64,000 bases of DNA from Anaerovoracaceae bacterium (lineage in GTDB: Bacteria; Bacillota; Clostridia; Peptostreptococcales; Anaerovoracaceae): positions 34,250-98,249 of the forward strand of contig JBJFHL010000062.1 in assembly GCA_051893555.1 (NCBI GenBank), in the 5' to 3' direction. Position numbers and translations under genes: made by a program. Each line of letters starts with the position of its first letter. The first letter of the stretch is position 1. The notes beneath the pieces are model-generated. The model was not told the origin of the DNA. It worked only from the letters and a program-made list of their open reading frames with translations, and did not search any database. Shown here in pieces: positions 24,977 through 33,161 of the stretch.

Positions 24977-26194
24977 ATGACTGCAGAGAACACCGGTATG
25001 CGCGATAATTGTCCACATTGCGAATTTTGCGGAGGGTGCATCCATCAGGGCGTGCCCTACGAAAGGCAGCTTGCGGAGAAAGAAAGGGAAGTCCGCAGGC
25101 TTTTGGAAGCAAAGAACGTGACGCCGGACCGGATCGATCCCATCGAGGGATGCCCGTCTCAGTACGGTTATCGGAACAAGATGGAATACACCTTCGGCGA
25201 TTTCGTCAAAGATGGGGAAATGACCCTGGGCATGCACCGAAAGAAAAACTTCATGTCCATCGTTACAGTGGATCAGTGTCAGCTGGTGGATTCGGATTTC
25301 AACGTGATCCTGGCGGCGGTGCTTGCGTTTTGCCGGGAGCGGAGCTATAAACCGTATCATAAACGGACCCATAAAGGCCTGATGCGGAACCTGATCATCC
25401 GGAAGGGTGTTCGAACCGGCGAGCTACTGGTCAATGTGGTTACATCTTCGGAGCCGGGGTTTGCGGAGGAGGAATTTGTATCCATGCTTCAAAACCTCTC
25501 TTTGCAAAATACACTGGTCGGGGTTCTGCGGACCTTCAACGACAGTCTTGCGGATGCGGTAATCTGTCAGGAACTGAAGGTACTCTGGGGCAGGGACTAT
25601 TATGTAGAGAAGATTCTGGGTCTCTCCTTCCGGGTCAGTGCGTTTTCTTTCTTCCAGACGAACGTGGAGGCCGTGGAACGGCTGTATTCCGAAGCGCTGG
25701 CACTGGTAGACTCCTTTGAGGGCAAGTCAGCCTTCGATTTGTACTGCGGGACCGGTACCATCAGCCAGGTGCTGGCTTTGCGGGCAGCAAAGGTGCTTGG
25801 GATTGAGCTGGTGGAGGAAGCGGTGGAATCTGCGAAAGAAAATGCGGCGGCCAATGGCCTGACCAACTGCAGTTTTCTGGCCGGCGACGTGTTCGAAGTG
25901 CTTCAGACCGTTTCGGAAAAGCCGGATGTCATCGTAGTGGATCCGCCGCGGGTTGGCATTCAGCCGAAGGCACTGGATAAGATCATCAGCTACGGCGTTC
26001 CGGAGATTGTATACATCTCCTGCAATCCGAAGACCCTGGCAGAAAACCTGAAATATATGGAGTATTACGGCTATCGCTGCAAATATCTGAAACCATTCGA
26101 TAATTTTCCGATGACAAAGCATACAGAGTGCATTACACTGCTGTCAAAGATAACGGAAAACGGAATGAAAATGCACGAAATGGAAGCGAAATAA
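24977..26194 (+). CDS. 23S rRNA (uracil-C5)-methyltransferase, RlmD/RumA/TrmA family
   Basis: N-terminal Cys cluster CPHCEFCGGC. Motifs DLYCGTGTI, DPPRVG and YISCNP. Start ambiguous (24941, 24950 or 24977). 24977 follows AGAGGA and lies after the tgt stop. Confidence 0.85.
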   Translation: MTAENTGMRDNCPHCEFCGGCIHQGVPYERQLAEKEREVRRLLEAKNVTPDRIDPIEGCPSQYGYRNKMEYTFGDFVKDGEMTLGMHRKKNFMSIVTVDQCQLVDSDFNVILAAVLAFCRERSYKPYHKRTHKGLMRNLIIRKGVRTGELLVNVVTSSEPGFAEEEFVSMLQNLSLQNTLVGVLRTFNDSLADAVICQELKVLWGRDYYVEKILGLSFRVSAFSFFQTNVEAVERLYSEALALVDSFEGKSAFDLYCGTGTISQVLALRAAKVLGIELVEEAVESAKENAAANGLTNCSFLAGDVFEVLQTVSEKPDVIVVDPPRVGIQPKALDKIISYGVPEIVYISCNPKTLAENLKYMEYYGYRCKYLKPFDNFPMTKHTECITLLSKITENGMKMHEMEAK

Positions 26195-26203
26195 TAATAA
26201 AGA

Positions 26204-26232
26204 TTGCTATTGTTCCGATAAAAGAATATAAT
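26204..26232 (+). promoter_or_regulatory. putative sigma-A promoter of the R-M block
   Basis: TTGCTA, 17-nt spacer, TATAAT, located about 30 nt upstream of the methyltransferase ATG. Confidence 0.45.
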
Positions 26233-26260
26233 AGTTGCATAGAATGAATGGAGGTTTCAT

Positions 26261-28402
26261 ATGCTGCTTACTTCAACAGAATTAGCTGAAAAATGGGGAA
26301 TCTCTGCCAGACGTATTTCACTTCTATGCAGCGAAGGGAGACTGGAGGGGGCCTTTAAAAAGGGAAAAACATGGTTGATTCCTGATAATACACCAAGACC
26401 GGATGATTTAAGAATAAAAACCAATGGAAAAGAAAATCGGCAGATGCTTGGGATTCAAAACAGGAGATACCTGGGAAATAAATATAAATTACTCGATTTT
26501 ATTGAGGAAACCATAGAAGAACACTGCCCTGGCGTACATTCCATGTTTGACGTATTTGCCGGCACGGGCGTGGTCGCATATCATTTTATGGATCGAATGA
26601 AAGTGGTTACAAATGACATCCTGTACAGCAATTATCTGGCGCATGTAGCATTTATGTCAAATGAAAAAATCGACAGCAAAAAAATCGATCAGACAATTCA
26701 TTTATTCAATTCTCTGAATCCGGCTGATCTGGATGAAAATTACATGTCGATCAATTTTGGTGATACATATTTTTCTCATGACGATTGTAAAAAAATCGGT
26801 TACGCGAGGGAATATATTAAAGCGCGATTTGAGTCAGGTGATTTGAATGCGCGTGAACATGCCATCCTGATTACTGTGATTCTATATGCGATGGACAGAG
26901 TTGCAAATACGTGCGGACATTATGATGCCTATAGAAAGGGAGCAGCGTTTGACCGCATGATAGAGTTTCTGCCCCTTGATCTGACTGCAAAATCAAAACG
27001 GAAAAATCTGTTTTACAACGGGGACGCCAACGAGATTGTAAATGAAGCGGATTTCCCGGCAGTGGACTGTGTATATTGTGATCCGCCGTACAATAGCAGA
27101 AATTACAGTGATCTGTATCATGTGCTTGAAAATGTGGCGAAATGGGAAAAGCCGGAAGTATTCGGCGTTGCCAGAAAAATGGACAGAACGGAATTAAAGA
27201 GCAAGTATTGCGGTAAGGAAGCTGCAGCAGCCTTTGATGATCTGGTTCAGAAACTGAGATGCAAATATATTATATTGTCATACAACAATACCGGAGATCG
27301 TGCGAATGACAGAAGCAATGCACGAATGACGGATCATGATATCATCCGTGTCCTCTCGAAAAAAGGAGATGTGAAGGTATATTCTAAAAAATATAAAGCG
27401 TTTACAACCGGCAAATCAGAGAATGATGCCAATGAAGAACGTTTATTTGTATGTACGGTTTTTTCTGACAAAAAGAATGAAAGAAAAGGGTATGTAAAAT
27501 CTCCGCTCAATTATACTGGTGGTAAAACCAGGTTGCTGCCGCAGCTTTTACCTCTTTTTCCGGATCATATTCACACGTTTTATGATCTGTTTTGCGGGGG
27601 AGCTAATGTTGGGATAAATGTGAAAGCCGATTATGTCGTATATAGTGATTCAAATGCAGATCTGATCGGACTATTCCATACAATATCAAAATACTCTTCC
27701 GATGCGTTATTGAAAAATATTTATGCTGTGATCGATAAATACGGATTGTCAAGATCCGATGAAAATGGATACGCGATGTACGGCTGCAACAGCGCGGATG
27801 GATTAGGAAGTTATAATAAGGAAAAATACGTGCAGTTGCGGAATGATTTTAATTCGCTTTCGGATCGAAATGATGAATACTATTTTATGCTGTATGTATT
27901 GATTGTTTTCTCTTTTAATAACCAGATCCGCTTTAATAAAAAGCATGAATTTAATCTACCTGTTGGGAAAAGAGATTTTAATAAGAACATACGAAATCAT
28001 TTTGTCCGTTTTGCGGAGGAACTTGCTGCACAGAAGTGTATGTTTCAGTGCAGGGATTTCAGAAATCTGACGCTGTCCGAACTTGGACCCAATGATTTCG
28101 TGTACTGTGATCCGCCGTATCTGATTACAACTGCCAGCTATAATGAACAGAATGGGTGGACAGAAAAGGACGAAAAAGATTTGCTGGAGCTGCTGGATCG
28201 ATTAAATGCGCGTGGGATACGCTTTGCGCTTTCCAATGTTATGGTGCATAAAGGCCGAAGCAATGCTTTGCTGATGGAATGGGCAAAGCAGTACCACATA
28301 CATAATCTCTCTTTCCATTACAACAATTCAAATTATCACGGGAAAAATACGGAACAGGAAACGAAAGAAGTTCTTGTGACAAATTATGATGCATTCCGAT
28401 GA
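26261..28402 (+). CDS. Type IIS DNA adenine methyltransferase: N-terminal HTH plus two tandem Dam-like (alpha-class) domains, M.FokI/M.AlwI-like
   Basis: Two complete MTase halves. Half 1: RRYLGNKYKL, FDVFAGTGVVA, VYCDPPY. Half 2: SPLNYTGGKTRLL, DLFCGGANVG, VYCDPPY. About 65 aa of excisionase/MerR-like HTH (TSTELAEKWGISARRISLLCSEGRL) sit in front. Confidence 0.9.
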   Translation: MLLTSTELAEKWGISARRISLLCSEGRLEGAFKKGKTWLIPDNTPRPDDLRIKTNGKENRQMLGIQNRRYLGNKYKLLDFIEETIEEHCPGVHSMFDVFAGTGVVAYHFMDRMKVVTNDILYSNYLAHVAFMSNEKIDSKKIDQTIHLFNSLNPADLDENYMSINFGDTYFSHDDCKKIGYAREYIKARFESGDLNAREHAILITVILYAMDRVANTCGHYDAYRKGAAFDRMIEFLPLDLTAKSKRKNLFYNGDANEIVNEADFPAVDCVYCDPPYNSRNYSDLYHVLENVAKWEKPEVFGVARKMDRTELKSKYCGKEAAAAFDDLVQKLRCKYIILSYNNTGDRANDRSNARMTDHDIIRVLSKKGDVKVYSKKYKAFTTGKSENDANEERLFVCTVFSDKKNERKGYVKSPLNYTGGKTRLLPQLLPLFPDHIHTFYDLFCGGANVGINVKADYVVYSDSNADLIGLFHTISKYSSDALLKNIYAVIDKYGLSRSDENGYAMYGCNSADGLGSYNKEKYVQLRNDFNSLSDRNDEYYFMLYVLIVFSFNNQIRFNKKHEFNLPVGKRDFNKNIRNHFVRFAEELAAQKCMFQCRDFRNLTLSELGPNDFVYCDPPYLITTASYNEQNGWTEKDEKDLLELLDRLNARGIRFALSNVMVHKGRSNALLMEWAKQYHIHNLSFHYNNSNYHGKNTEQETKEVLVTNYDAFR

Positions 28403-28405
28403 GGT

Positions 28406-30409
28406 ATGGATATGGCGAAGCATTTTACGTATAAATCATATGCCTGGAGCCTGGGAACGACCAGCTTCAGAATGGCTGATTTTCACAGAAAAGTGGAGGA
28501 ACAGCTGATTTTATTGGATGCATTCTGGAATGTTCCTGAAAATAAAAGCAGAATCTGGAAATCCAATGCGCAAACGCAGTCATTGTATTATGATTTTCTG
28601 TTTGAAAAGGGATTTATCTCCGGTGAAATACAGAACAGTCCAGATAAGAAATCAAAAACAGCAAGGCAGAAAACGTCCGGACTCGTTGATATAGGTCTGA
28701 TCTATAACGACAGAAGACTGACGCCTGTAGGAAAAAAGCTATTGGACATGTGTCGCTCCGGAGATTTTAGCTGTGATAATGAGTTTCAGATCCCACGGGA
28801 CAGTTATCTGTATTTGAAACAAATATTGAAGACAGTATATAAAACGGAGGATTGGAAGGTACGTCCCTTTTTAGCAGCCGGAAAGGTATTGATGGAATGT
28901 GATGGCTATTTGTCTGAAAAAGAATTTACATACCTGCTTCCATTATGTGTAAGTGAAGATATTACAAAGGAAATTATAAAACAGATAAGAAACTACAGGG
29001 AAGGAAAGACCACGTTGAATCGGATCATTACGGAATCTGTCCTCTGCAGATATAATTATCCTTCTGCATTGCATTACTTTGTGCATTCGGCGAAAACACC
29101 TGAAGATATCATGGTGACAGGAATGAACAGAGATGGGATTCGGCATGATGCGTGCTATACATCGCTGTATCAGGAATTAAAACGAGTATATCTTGATCGA
29201 AAGCAGGAAGCGATTCCTTCTCTGATGAAAGCCGCGCGAGCGGTGAAAAACAAGCCGGGTACTTTGTGGAGAGGTTTGCTGTTTTCGAATGCTCGCAGAT
29301 GTACGAGCTTTTCCGATCTTGCACCGAATGATTTTGATTCTGTGCATACGGAAGAGCAATTTGACAGGTGCTTTTTTTCTTATCTTCATTTAAATAAGAT
29401 CAAGGCAACGCTCCGTGACTATATGGATCTGAACCGAAGGTATTTAAAGATCACGGACGCGTTTCTGTTTGAGGATGGGAAGGTGACATTCACACCTTTC
29501 TTTGATTACTTCTTTCGGACGAATGCGGGAAAGGTGTTTGAAGATACTTTTTCAGACTGTGATTTGCTGACGGAAGATTGTGATATAGAAACCATAAACA
29601 AACATTTACGCTTTCATGAAAATGAAGTCATCCGGATATTCAATGCAGAAAATGCGCTTTCAGCGCATTCCTTGGAGGAAGTTTATGACTTCCTCGAAAA
29701 TGACCGTTATCTGCGGTTTCGTAAGCTGATTGATACGCGATTCCCTGATCCGGTCATTCTATCCATGCTTGATAAATTTGAGAGCCGTGATCAGGATGCA
29801 GATCTGATCAGCCTTGCCGGCGGTGAGGCTGATGTACCTACCATATTCGAATATATCGTTGCAGTTGTCTGGTACAGAATAAGCGGATATACGGGAAAGA
29901 TACTGGATTATATGAATCTGTCACTGGATATGAATCTGCTGCCCAGAACACATGCTGGCGGTGGGGAATCAGATATCGTATATAAATATGCGGAAACACC
30001 GTTTTATCCGTCACATTCCCTTCTGATTGAATGCACGCTTATGGAGGGTACGACGCAGAGACATGGAGAAATGGAACCTGTATCCAGACATCTGGCCAAT
30101 TATATGATCGATGAAGATGAAAATGCATACTGCACCTTTGTTTCCAATAACTTGCATGCCTCTGTTATTTCGGACTTCAGAATGCGAAGAAGTTTTCCGT
30201 ACTATAGAAACGAACGTGACCATGTGAATGGAATGAAGATCATTCCGCTGCATACGAGAGAACTGAAGCGCATCATCGAGAAGAAGCTGTCATATGCACA
30301 GTTATATAAAATATTTGATGACGCATTTGTTTCTGACGAGGAAGAGGCTCCGCCTGCATGGTATGACACCTGTGTCAGGGGAAAAATTGATTCAATACAG
30401 GAGGGATAA
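28406..30409 (+). CDS. AlwI/BstNBI/PleI-family Type IIS restriction endonuclease (or nicking subunit)
   Basis: Starts 3 nt after the MTase stop. C-terminal catalytic region GGESDIVYKY...LLIECTLMEGTTQRHGEMEPVSRHL matches my recollection of the AlwI-family core (D..EhT/S ... EPVxRH). Confidence 0.72.
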   Translation: MDMAKHFTYKSYAWSLGTTSFRMADFHRKVEEQLILLDAFWNVPENKSRIWKSNAQTQSLYYDFLFEKGFISGEIQNSPDKKSKTARQKTSGLVDIGLIYNDRRLTPVGKKLLDMCRSGDFSCDNEFQIPRDSYLYLKQILKTVYKTEDWKVRPFLAAGKVLMECDGYLSEKEFTYLLPLCVSEDITKEIIKQIRNYREGKTTLNRIITESVLCRYNYPSALHYFVHSAKTPEDIMVTGMNRDGIRHDACYTSLYQELKRVYLDRKQEAIPSLMKAARAVKNKPGTLWRGLLFSNARRCTSFSDLAPNDFDSVHTEEQFDRCFFSYLHLNKIKATLRDYMDLNRRYLKITDAFLFEDGKVTFTPFFDYFFRTNAGKVFEDTFSDCDLLTEDCDIETINKHLRFHENEVIRIFNAENALSAHSLEEVYDFLENDRYLRFRKLIDTRFPDPVILSMLDKFESRDQDADLISLAGGEADVPTIFEYIVAVVWYRISGYTGKILDYMNLSLDMNLLPRTHAGGGESDIVYKYAETPFYPSHSLLIECTLMEGTTQRHGEMEPVSRHLANYMIDEDENAYCTFVSNNLHASVISDFRMRRSFPYYRNERDHVNGMKIIPLHTRELKRIIEKKLSYAQLYKIFDDAFVSDEEEAPPAWYDTCVRGKIDSIQEG

Positions 30410-30413
30410 CAAT

Positions 30414-31064
30414 ATGGAAGAGAGTAAAGCATTGGGACATGATGATGCGTCCGGTTTTTTATTCGCAAAGGAAATGCTGAACGGGGATGTTACAGCGGCT
30501 GTAAACTTCGATCGACTTATGAAGCATCCCAGGGAGGGATTTATTATCATGGAGTATCTGCTTTGCGAAGAAGACCAGATGGAAAAGCACAATACGACAC
30601 CATATACAAGCCATCCAAACAAATATTGGAATAAAAACAAAAGAAAATTTCTTTCGCTATGGAGAGCTGCACTGGATTTACATGGTTCACTGTATTTGGT
30701 GAATTACGCGAAAAAAGGAACAAAATTTGAAGATCAGATTCTCTGTATTAAAGTAAAAGGAATGAATGAGTACGGAATCTTTGAACAGGAAACGAAAAAA
30801 TATACCCGTGCTTCATTTCAGGCATGGTTCAGAGCGCTGAACCGGGAATGCCTGGGGCCGGAGGATGAGATCCTTGCGAAACAACCGATATACATCAGAA
30901 ACGGTTTTTACCATTCCAACAACAAGTGCAGTTTTTTAAGAGGAAAAAAGGACTACTCCTGCTGCGATATCCATGATGAATGGTATTACAGTAATTACAC
31001 ATATTGCAGAGAGTGTTATCCAAATGGGATATGTGATAAAATGGAAAATACAAAAACTCCCTAA
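30414..31064 (+). CDS. hypothetical protein, Cys/His-rich C-terminus, coupled to the REase gene
   Basis: ATG at 30414 sits 7 nt after an AGGAGGGA embedded in the REase 3' end, and 4 nt after the REase stop. 216 aa. No family recognised. C-terminus CSFLRGKKDYSCCDIHDEWYYSNYTYCRECYPNGIC. Confidence 0.6.
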   Translation: MEESKALGHDDASGFLFAKEMLNGDVTAAVNFDRLMKHPREGFIIMEYLLCEEDQMEKHNTTPYTSHPNKYWNKNKRKFLSLWRAALDLHGSLYLVNYAKKGTKFEDQILCIKVKGMNEYGIFEQETKKYTRASFQAWFRALNRECLGPEDEILAKQPIYIRNGFYHSNNKCSFLRGKKDYSCCDIHDEWYYSNYTYCRECYPNGICDKMENTKTP

Positions 31065-31110
31065 ACTATGACATTTAAGCCCTAAAAAACGACATTTTTG
31101 AAAAAAAGTT

Positions 31111-31138
31111 TTGCTTTTTCCTGAAAAATCCATATAAT
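31111..31138 (+). promoter_or_regulatory. putative promoter for the paralogous gene pair
   Basis: TTGCTT, 16-nt spacer, TATAAT, followed by a hairpin-rich leader of about 140 nt. Confidence 0.4.
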
Positions 31139-31284
31139 CTGAACCACAGGACCGGTTCAGACCGACGGAGGAATTTCCCGTCTGTGCTGACGAGTGACAG
31201 ATGGAAAAGTCCTGACGTGCAGGTCTGCCGGTCTGTTATATTTTGCGCAGAAAAAGAGGGAAAGCAGAAAGGGGAGAGCAAACC

Positions 31285-32175
31285 TTGAACTACGAAAGCT
31301 TCAAAAAGGAAATACAGAAACAGATCCTGGATCATCTGCCGGAAGGCAAAGAAGGGTGGACTGTAAAAATGGAACAGATTCGAAAGGTGAACCGGCTGCT
31401 GGACGGCATGATCCTTATGCCGCCGAATTACGCACAACCGCCTTATGGTGTGGGACTGACATTTTACATGGAGGAATATTTTGAACTGTATCGAAAGGGT
31501 ACGCCAATCGAAAAAATTCTGGAAGAGATTGCACGGATGACCAAAGAGTATGTGCCGTCAGAGCAACTGACGGATTCATTCTTTCATCCGGAAAAAGTAA
31601 AAAATCAGATCATTATGGAACTGATCCACCGGCAGCGGAACCGGAAACTTCTGGAGACATTGCCGCATCGGGATTTTCTGGATCTGGCGGTGATCTACCG
31701 AATCCTGATGAAGGACGAGGAGCGAGGGTATTATTGCTCGACGGTAAACTATGAAATGATGAAGCTGCTTGCGATGACGGAGGAGAGGCTGTATCAGGCT
31801 GCACGCGAATATATGCCGGCGGAGCTGCCGTTCGCTGCACGGAATTTTGAAAATAAATTCATGATCATTTCCAACCTGCGTGAGATGTTCGGCGCGTCGG
31901 TACTGCTGTTTCCGAATGTGCTGGATCAGGTATGTGAGGAGCTTGGCGGAAATCTGTATATTCTGCCGGCTTCCGGAAATAAGATCTGCGTGGAAAGAGA
32001 AAATCCGAAGCGGCTTGGAGAAATGCAAAAAATGCTGAGAGATTTTTATCATATGAGCAATGATCCGGATGATATGCTTTCCGATCAGGTCTACTTTTAC
32101 CGATGGCATTCCGGACAGGTTGAGATTATGCCGGATGCAGCGGATTTTAAGGATGAGGAAGGAGGAAGAGAATGA
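31285..32175 (+). CDS. hypothetical protein, DUF5688-like (paralog 1)
   Basis: TTG start 8 nt after GGGGAG gives MNYESFKKEIQ, parallel to the paralog's MISYERFRQEV. Shared blocks PHR.FLDLAVIYRI and YILP. The family name is from memory only. Confidence 0.6.
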   Translation: MNYESFKKEIQKQILDHLPEGKEGWTVKMEQIRKVNRLLDGMILMPPNYAQPPYGVGLTFYMEEYFELYRKGTPIEKILEEIARMTKEYVPSEQLTDSFFHPEKVKNQIIMELIHRQRNRKLLETLPHRDFLDLAVIYRILMKDEERGYYCSTVNYEMMKLLAMTEERLYQAAREYMPAELPFAARNFENKFMIISNLREMFGASVLLFPNVLDQVCEELGGNLYILPASGNKICVERENPKRLGEMQKMLRDFYHMSNDPDDMLSDQVYFYRWHSGQVEIMPDAADFKDEEGGRE

Positions 32176-33161
32176 TCAGCTACGAAAGATTTCGTCAGGA
32201 AGTCATGAACCGGATAAAGTCCTATCTGCCGGAAAGCTATGCAGGATGGAAACTGCGTATGGAAACCGAATATAAGATCAATCAGATTCTGGACTGTCTT
32301 ACCCTGTATCCGCCGGGAAATCTGAAACTGACTGCAGTCCCCCAATTCTATCTGCAGGAGTATTATCAATTGTATCTGAAGGGGGTCTCTGCAGATTTTA
32401 TACTGCGTATGATCGCTTCACGAATTGAAAATGTACCATCTCCCGAAGAGGTGGAACAGTCCGGTTTCGATATTCTGAAATTTCAGGACAGTGTGGTAAT
32501 GCAGCTTGTTCATCGGTTTCGAAATCATGTATTTCTGAAAAGCGTGCCGCACCGTCCATTTCTGGATCTGGCGGTGATCTATCGAATCATGGTTTTCGAT
32601 GAAAAGGGAAAGTGGGCAGGTGCTGTGATCAATCACACCATGCTGAACGCCATGGGAATTTCGGAGGAGAAACTGTTTGAACGGGCATACAGACATACTC
32701 CCGAGGCGCTTCCGTTTCAGCTGACAGATACCCGGGAATTGCTGCCGTGTAAGGGAATCTGTCGGGAGGATTGTACTGCGGATTGCGGGGAGAACTGCTG
32801 CAAAGTGCTGCAGAAGTATGCAGACACAGGCGAAGATGGGAAAAACACTTTCGCATGTATATTGCGGGAACAGAAAACGAAAATGCTTATGCTGTCCAAT
32901 GAAAGTGAACAGTTCGGTGCTGCTGCCATGTTATATCCGGAGCAGCTCAATGCGGCATGTGACAAGCTGGACGGCAGCATATACATCCTCCCTGGCAGCA
33001 TGCATGAACTGTATCTTGTCCGTGAAGAGCCGGAGAAACTGGGATTTTACCGGAAACTGGTCATGCATGCGGGAAGTGATGTGGTGGACGAGACGGATTG
33101 GCTGTCTGAACAGGTGTACCGATACAATCCGAAAACCGGGAAGGTGCGAGTGGCATTATAG
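32172..33161 (+). CDS. hypothetical protein, DUF5688-like (paralog 2) with a Cys-rich insertion
   Basis: ATGA start/stop overlap with paralog 1. Blocks PHRPFLDLAVIYRI and YILPGSMHELYLV. Insertion CKGICREDCTADCGENCC. Confidence 0.6.
   Translation: MISYERFRQEVMNRIKSYLPESYAGWKLRMETEYKINQILDCLTLYPPGNLKLTAVPQFYLQEYYQLYLKGVSADFILRMIASRIENVPSPEEVEQSGFDILKFQDSVVMQLVHRFRNHVFLKSVPHRPFLDLAVIYRIMVFDEKGKWAGAVINHTMLNAMGISEEKLFERAYRHTPEALPFQLTDTRELLPCKGICREDCTADCGENCCKVLQKYADTGEDGKNTFACILREQKTKMLMLSNESEQFGAAAMLYPEQLNAACDKLDGSIYILPGSMHELYLVREEPEKLGFYRKLVMHAGSDVVDETDWLSEQVYRYNPKTGKVRVAL

Follow-up and report, generated by a model that had tools for sequence, protein, structure and literature searches.

A tandem pair of canonical and motif-degenerate DUF5688 genes at a shared chromosomal site in an Anaerovoracaceae bacterium

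The two genes and their family

We analysed a 64,000-nucleotide (nt) stretch of the genome of an Anaerovoracaceae bacterium (GenBank assembly GCA_051893555.1, contig JBJFHL010000062.1, positions 34,250 to 98,249), referred to here as the window, and in particular two adjacent genes within it that encode proteins of the family DUF5688. The pair adds members to a known but uncharacterised family, in the form of a paired variant in which one copy is canonical and the other is degenerate at a conserved motif. The open reading frames (ORFs) and their junction, which includes a Shine-Dalgarno (SD) sequence, are as follows.

31285-32175, + strand: paralog 1, the degenerate DUF5688 copy; 296 amino acids (aa), TTG start, Pfam PF18941 at E 4.5e-59
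32172-33161, + strand: paralog 2, the canonical DUF5688 copy; 329 aa, ATG start, Pfam PF18941 at E 5.8e-58
32155-32175, + strand: coupling junction, SD sequence GAGGAAGGAGG followed by the ATGA stop/start overlap; kept at the related loci L007, L013 and L018, with GTGA at L020

A first-pass annotation of this DNA, made from the letters alone, had described the two ORFs as homologous tandem genes joined by an ATGA overlap. Both the ORF list and a BLASTP comparison bear this out: the proteins are 32% identical over their full length (E 1e-58), and the Y-E-x-F, PHRxFLDLAVIYRI and YILP blocks named in that annotation are all found in both. Its assignment of the proteins to DUF5688 was correct as well. 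In the Pfam search that it had proposed as a check, both match PF18941 from end to end, paralog 1 scoring 200.8 bits and paralog 2 197.1 bits against a gathering cut-off of 34.5 bits.

A longer frame for paralog 1 is possible from an upstream TTG at 31243 in the ORF list. We place the start at the TTG at 31285 because it is backed by an SD sequence, GGGGAG (31271-31276), from which it lies 8 nt downstream, and because it agrees both with the relatives, where the arrangement is identical, and with the N-terminus of the family. The stop codon of paralog 1 and the start codon of paralog 2 share the ATGA at 32172-32175, and GGAGG is present at 32161-32165, 6 nt 5' of the paralog 2 ATG. The combination of SD sequence and ATGA or GTGA overlap is kept in five of five lineages, down to protein identities of 51-57%. 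The pair is probably co-transcribed and translationally coupled through the overlap.

DUF5688 is widely represented. A profile of close relatives, run against a cluster library at 50% identity, retrieved 17,639 representatives with E <= 0.001, of which 6,074 reached E <= 1e-30. Matches were found in 34 of 121 genomes of the window's own bacterial family (the window's genome counted), in 28 of 399 genomes of a class sample (mostly from two further families) and in none of 14 control genomes. Neither paralog matched a profile of PHROGs, NCBIfam or PADLOC-DB, and no relative of solved structure was found by sequence, either with phmmer or with a 61-sequence profile, among PDB sequences. A literature search for DUF5688 and PF18941 found no paper in the library covered.

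The S-x-H-E motif and its replacement in paralog 1

32997-33008, + strand: S-M-H-E, the canonical family motif in paralog 2, at the turn of a beta-hairpin (strands 270-276 and 279-284)
31972-31983, + strand: S-G-N-K in place of S-x-H-E in paralog 1, located by family alignment and orthologue comparison

A difference between the two proteins had already been picked out in the first-pass annotation, which described an S-x-H-E motif in paralog 2 and the loss of its H-E pair in paralog 1. Residue conservation, counted in an alignment of 222 DUF5688 members, confirms that S-x-H-E is a near-invariant block of the family, with S276 in 221, H278 in 193 and E279 in 212 sequences. Other positions were counted in the same alignment: P274 is found in all 222 members, N118 and Y316 each in 221, N37 and G249 each in 219, D132 in 218, N301 in 215, K35 in 210 and H127 in 184. 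A near-invariant core of F7, K35, N37, N118, D132, G249, A250, P274, S276, L311 and Y316 is complete in both paralogs.

Paralog 2 holds S-M-H-E within the segment ILPGSMHELYLV. It is canonical throughout save for Gly at N301 (codon GGA, 33072-33074), where close orthologues keep Asn. In paralog 1, where the segment ILPASGNKICVE holds S-G-N-K, departures from the invariant set occur only at H278 (Asn), E279 (Lys) and N301 (Tyr). The loss of H-E is real and is kept in all orthologues of that copy, which carry S-G-D-K, S-R-D-K or S-G-D-Q at the motif; Lys or Gln at its last position is confined to the paralog 1 clade (4 of the 222 sequences). The replacement has its own signature, P-x-S-G-[ND]-[KQ] together with Tyr301, which all paralog 1 orthologues share, L020 and P0089 at 57% identity among them.

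Judged from these alignments, paralog 1 is the divergent member of the family and paralog 2 the canonical one. Like canonical single-copy DUF5688 proteins of Clostridia, which are about 300 aa long, both match the profile over its full length, and they have in common with these proteins K35, N37, N118, P126-H-R, D132, N243, G249-A250, P274, S276, L311-S312, Y316 and Y318. Unlike them, the window has two apparently coupled copies, of which paralog 1 carries S-G-N-K and Tyr at 301, and paralog 2 carries Gly at 301 and a 47-aa Cys-rich loop.

Duplication and selection

In a maximum-likelihood tree both paralog clades fall inside one local clade (support 98/92). Paralog 1 and its orthologues sit on a stem of 1.25 substitutions per site, beside a clade of paralog 2, P0020 and P0086 whose stem measures 0.32. 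The topology and branch lengths indicate that paralog 1 is an in-lineage duplicate, and that divergence was asymmetric and took place in a burst after the duplication.

Could paralog 1 be a duplicate that is degenerating into a pseudogene? The loss of H278, E279 and N301 and the long stem branch are what such decay would produce, yet the remaining evidence makes this explanation hardly credible. The frame is intact, all other invariant residues are kept, and orthologues with the same replacement motif have been retained at 57-70% identity. The ratio of nonsynonymous to synonymous substitution rates (dN/dS), calculated against L007, is 0.225 for paralog 1, compared with 0.126 for paralog 2 and 0.05-0.12 for neighbouring housekeeping genes. 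Once the initial burst was over, paralog 1 diverged no faster than its partner, as the two proteins are 57% and 51% identical, respectively, to their counterparts at L020. By these measures paralog 1 is a maintained gene, under purifying selection, with a changed site. Moreover, wherever the degenerate copy was seen, a canonical copy followed directly downstream.

A conserved site with a variable neighbour

The window flanks of the pair consist of tgt, an rlmD-like gene, a restriction-modification (R-M) island, a HAD gene and the rib operon, and no conjugation, relaxase, integrase or adhesin gene was found near the pair. DNA comparison showed that an Anaerovoracaceae metagenome-assembled genome (locus L007) is collinear with the window at 87% on both sides, with two differences: a 1.2-kb GGDEF gene stands in the place of window positions 26144-31030, and the insert at 32739-32880 is absent. 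A pair of 296-aa and ~281-303-aa proteins occupies this site, in the interval from the rlmD-like gene to the rib operon, at loci L007-L010, L013, L018 and L020. In more distant relatives the site holds a single canonical gene, which is 40% identical and preceded by a patatin gene in L012, and 56% identical and preceded by an M56 peptidase gene or another gene in L015 and L016.

26144-31030, + strand: R-M island, a neighbour and not part of the pair; 4.9 kb, GC content 0.39-0.43 against ~0.5 in the flanks

The island, which lies directly 5' of the pair, contains a fused double D12 methyltransferase, an AlwI-family endonuclease and a 216-aa accessory ORF. Its presence had suggested an anti-restriction or defence-associated role for the two genes, and one may picture them as accessory to this neighbouring Type IIS-like R-M system, whether for anti-restriction, as a regulator or as a defence partner. 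The pair does lie on the same strand, 220 nt 3' of the R-M block, and DUF5688 is found in conjugative-element regions that often carry anti-restriction genes. Nevertheless, we regard such a role as very improbable. The R-M genes form a 4.9-kb replacement island that is absent from relatives and has its own boundaries and a low GC content, and the same pair with its leader is found in relatives next to GGDEF, patatin, M56 peptidase, ABC-2 permease or other genes instead. The pair possesses its own conserved promoter-like region. There is no PADLOC match for the paralogs, and their isoelectric points of 5.2-5.9 (family median 4.9) are only mildly acidic and therefore not like those of DNA mimics. 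Given the variety of genes in the slot 5' of DUF5688, this slot is a variable cargo site and the R-M system one of its many occupants, so that adjacency to it is uninformative about function. The pair belongs to the chromosome of an Anaerovoracaceae-like gut bacterium and is not R-M cargo; the R-M system presumably arrived later, and independently, next to a long-kept pair. This removes the nearby R-M system as a misleading lead on what the two genes do.

Further observations concern this site. The 216-aa ORF (30414-31064) matches the PADLOC Type II restriction endonuclease model PDLC03429 at 2e-12, and the right edge of the island falls within its last ~34 nt. A genome of the same genus (G066, locus L035) carries at the site a single DUF5688 gene whose product is 29% identical to paralog 2, between rib and rlmD flanks that are 68-89% identical. 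Either the protein at this site has evolved very fast, or a different member of the family has taken its place. Upstream of the gene lies a diverged form of the window's promoter repeats.

The leader of the pair

31050-31284, + strand: promoter-like region and leader of the pair; identity to relatives above that of the genes

The region in front of the pair is better conserved than the pair itself: its identity to relatives is 92%, 91% and 83-88%, compared with 73%, 76% and 66% in the adjoining coding sequence. Within the leader are two direct repeats, TCCCTAAA..CCCTAAA, at 31058-31086, a -35-like TTGCTT (31111), a -10-like TATAAT (31133-31138) and a palindrome, CTGAACC-N8-GGTTCAG (31139-31160), which is compensated to GTGAACC..GGTTCAC in L012; a further direct repeat, GGTCTGCCGGTCTG, is also present. 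The same leader precedes single-copy orthologues. It had no match in Rfam, and a scan for consensus promoters did not list its promoter. Taken at face value, these elements suggest a promoter with predicted sites for protein binding, and not a riboswitch.

The first ~74 nt of the leader, comprising the two repeats and the -35 element, recur elsewhere in the same genome, at contig C16:36357-36430 (-) and contig C57:38544-38596 (+) (loci L095 and L096), with 78% (E 7e-11) and 75% identity. One recurrence lies between flavin-reductase and S33 hydrolase genes and the other just 5' of a 232-aa ORF without a Pfam match. The recurring segment may be the mark of a small regulon or a repeat element.

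DUF5688 in other settings

How typical is a chromosomal pair of this family? We took a census of the neighbourhoods of 68 DUF5688 loci. Sixteen adjoin a large TQ/SpaA/NlpC surface adhesin of conjugative elements, and RadC, topoisomerase III, CD1107-like, Toprim-primase and relaxase genes are found near loci of this type. Nine follow rsgA-rpe-thiN (thiN encoding thiamine pyrophosphokinase) and seven lie between efp and an SH3 protein gene; no single partner gene is conserved across the 68. The first-pass annotation had placed the family usually on conjugative elements. This holds for the 16 loci with the adhesin, but not as a general rule, since many others are chromosomal. A plasmid collection yielded one match, surrounded mostly by hypothetical proteins, and a phage collection yielded seven faecal phage contigs with a match, none of them annotated. 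In the window's own genome, contig C3:375-503 (locus L006) holds a short DUF5688 C-terminal fragment (profile positions 246-289) that contains an in-frame TGA; it is probably what remains of a gene at the contig end.

The same genome harbours a second DUF5688 pair (contig C21, locus L011, 6330-8263, minus strand), whose motifs are S-V-E-E and S-L-D-E and which has lost the PHR block. This pair resides on a conjugative element, with a 2175-aa TED/TQ/SpaA adhesin on one side and DUF3846, an AAA_21 ATPase, a NikA-like protein, a relaxase and a coupling protein on the other. A further tandem pair, with motifs S-R-Q-E and S-I-H-E, is found at a Faecalimonas locus (L021). These element-borne pairs of Firmicutes resemble the window pair in that adjacent paralogs have diverged and the motif His has given way to another residue in one copy or both. 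They differ from it in standing beside adhesin, relaxase, coupling-protein, RadC or DUF3846 genes, in deriving from separate duplications and in having no overlap. The C21 copies, moreover, are without the PHR block, unlike the window pair, which is chromosomal and syntenic.

Is the window pair then what a conjugative element left behind, now domesticated but with the element's function kept, its target being incoming DNA or the response of the host while an element becomes established? The 16 adhesin-type loci and the second pair of the same genome speak for such an origin, as would a resemblance to DinI. The Pfam DinI-like model PF06183, which covers the RecA-filament-binding DinI and phage 186 Tum, is matched by 5 of 61 DUF5688 members, at best with 24.8 bits against a cut-off of 24.2, and the N-terminal helix and beta-hairpin of DUF5688 (residues ~3-46) align with DinI helix 1 and strands 2-3. 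Neither window protein matches this model. The acidic C-terminal helix of DinI, which contacts RecA, lies outside the matched part. We rejected kinship with DinI after an hhalign comparison of a DinI alignment built from eight phage genes with the family alignment gave a probability of 6% over 36 columns (E 0.006), which is not significant. As for the locus itself, there is no conjugation, integrase or relaxase gene near the window pair, synteny at the site extends to lineages whose proteins are just 29-40% identical, with the promoter region conserved, and the element-borne pair forms a separate clade that arose by a separate duplication. A conjugative origin is thus quite unlikely.

A third arrangement is provided by natural fusions of two DUF5688 units, ~640 aa long, which occur in three clusters (P0105, P0233 and P0234; 49-61% identity). 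Their first unit always carries S-x-H-E and the second D-E, H-E or N-E. Like the window pair, the fusions combine two DUF5688 units, here with expression fixed at 1:1, and the His of the second unit is often changed to Asp or Asn. Unlike the window pair, they place the canonical unit before the variant one, the reverse of the order in the window, and keep the Glu in both units.

Predicted structure and the Cys-rich loop

An AlphaFold2 model of paralog 2, calculated from a 61-sequence alignment, shows an alpha/beta protein with a mean predicted local distance difference test score (pLDDT) of 89.3 and a predicted template modelling score (pTM) of 0.85. A beta-hairpin carries S276, H278 and E279 at its turn, and the remaining invariant polar residues fall where strands end or helices begin. 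Such a placement in the model would be typical of a small-molecule- or nucleotide-binding alpha/beta enzyme. A Foldseek search of BFVD returned one 139-aa phage protein (E 6e-3) and several proteins of ~80 aa, all matching one sub-domain. Shorter DUF5688 forms of ~200-240 aa, which have no counterpart to the N-terminal ~100 residues, were seen on phage contigs H34-H38 and among several genome matches; the N-terminal helix-hairpin domain therefore appears to be a separable module.

The only uncertain part of the model, residues ~190-235 with pLDDT ~57, is the insert of paralog 2.

32739-32880, + strand: lineage-specific loop expansion of ~47 residues (~190-236); absent from L007; pLDDT ~57

Here the first-pass annotation had reported a Cys-rich segment and proposed a metal or disulfide cluster. 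The segment is present, with the Cys run CKGICREDCTADCGENCC at residues 193-210 (nt 32748-32801), and it occupies the most length-variable loop of the family. The cluster did not stand up to comparison: close paralog 2 orthologues of 329, 319, 311, 293 and 281 aa have 7, 4, 5, 1 and 0 Cys residues in the loop, and the prediction is poor in this region. The tree pairs the 281-aa and 319-aa forms as sisters, which means that the loop was shortened more than once. The Cys-rich loop is thus unlikely to form a conserved metal or disulfide cluster and may be regarded as an optional decoration, though it might hold an optional metal site in this strain.

Do the two proteins act together?

We propose, at a probability of roughly 40%, that the two proteins form an active/inactive heteromer of a canonical and a degenerate subunit, as had been suggested on first inspection. 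The two products would assemble into a two-subunit complex in which paralog 2 supplies a functional S-x-H-E pocket, catalytic or ligand-binding, and paralog 1 serves as a non-catalytic structural or regulatory partner. We favour this reading because the coupling is conserved, both genes are under purifying selection, no degenerate copy was seen alone and two-unit fusions exist. We also count in its favour that independent tandem pairs elsewhere alter the motif His in one or both copies, and that the single-gene sites L012, L015 and L016 carry a canonical copy.

Several observations weigh against the heteromer. Most DUF5688 genes work as single copies, and among 58 other matching genomes in our samples none had two full-length matches side by side. 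H278 is conserved in only 87% of the family, so that it may not be catalytic, and in the window's own paralog 2 Gly replaces the 97%-conserved Asn301. The enzymatic side of the proposal found no support in ten longer DUF5688 members, which were scanned and contained no second Pfam domain, nor in the profile search of PDB sequences, nor in the fold, as a Foldseek search of the PDB with the paralog 2 model gave no fold relative (best E 0.047, TM <= 0.13). The same search with a model of the fusion protein likewise found none (best E 0.4, TM <= 0.13). In this fusion model, for which the alignment held just three two-unit sequences, both units are folded (pLDDT 87.9), with a pTM of 0.58, a disordered linker and no fixed interface predicted between them.

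The last point is also what might be expected if the two proteins were independent paralogs, each acting on a different ligand or target without forming a complex, the gene overlap being a matter of compact operon structure. That most members of the family are single genes fits this explanation, and so does the state of paralog 1, which keeps nearly all invariant residues and shows a new conserved motif, P-x-S-G-[ND]-[KQ], instead of random decay. It sits less well with a degenerate copy that is never found without a canonical copy directly downstream, with apparent translational coupling kept down to 51-57% identity and with the existence of fusion proteins. On balance we consider independent action somewhat unlikely, and we retain the heteromer of canonical and degenerate subunits as our tentative model.

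As a broader speculation, DUF5688 could be an enzyme or ligand-binding family of new fold, whose S-x-H-E pocket is tuned by degenerate paralogs. The window pair would then be a fixed complex of canonical protein and pseudoenzyme, controlled by a conserved regulator of its own. Degenerate copies borne by conjugative elements would serve as decoys for the canonical protein of the host, or modulate it, on entry of the element into a cell. Taken as a whole this scheme is a long shot. DUF5688 is among the large uncharacterised protein families of gut Clostridia, and the locus described here constitutes a natural experiment, in which a canonical and a motif-degenerate copy have stayed coupled across great evolutionary distances, preceded by a regulatory region whose conservation exceeds that of the two genes. 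It is a good entry point for a first structure, for a test of the interaction between the two proteins and for a mutational test of S-x-H-E.

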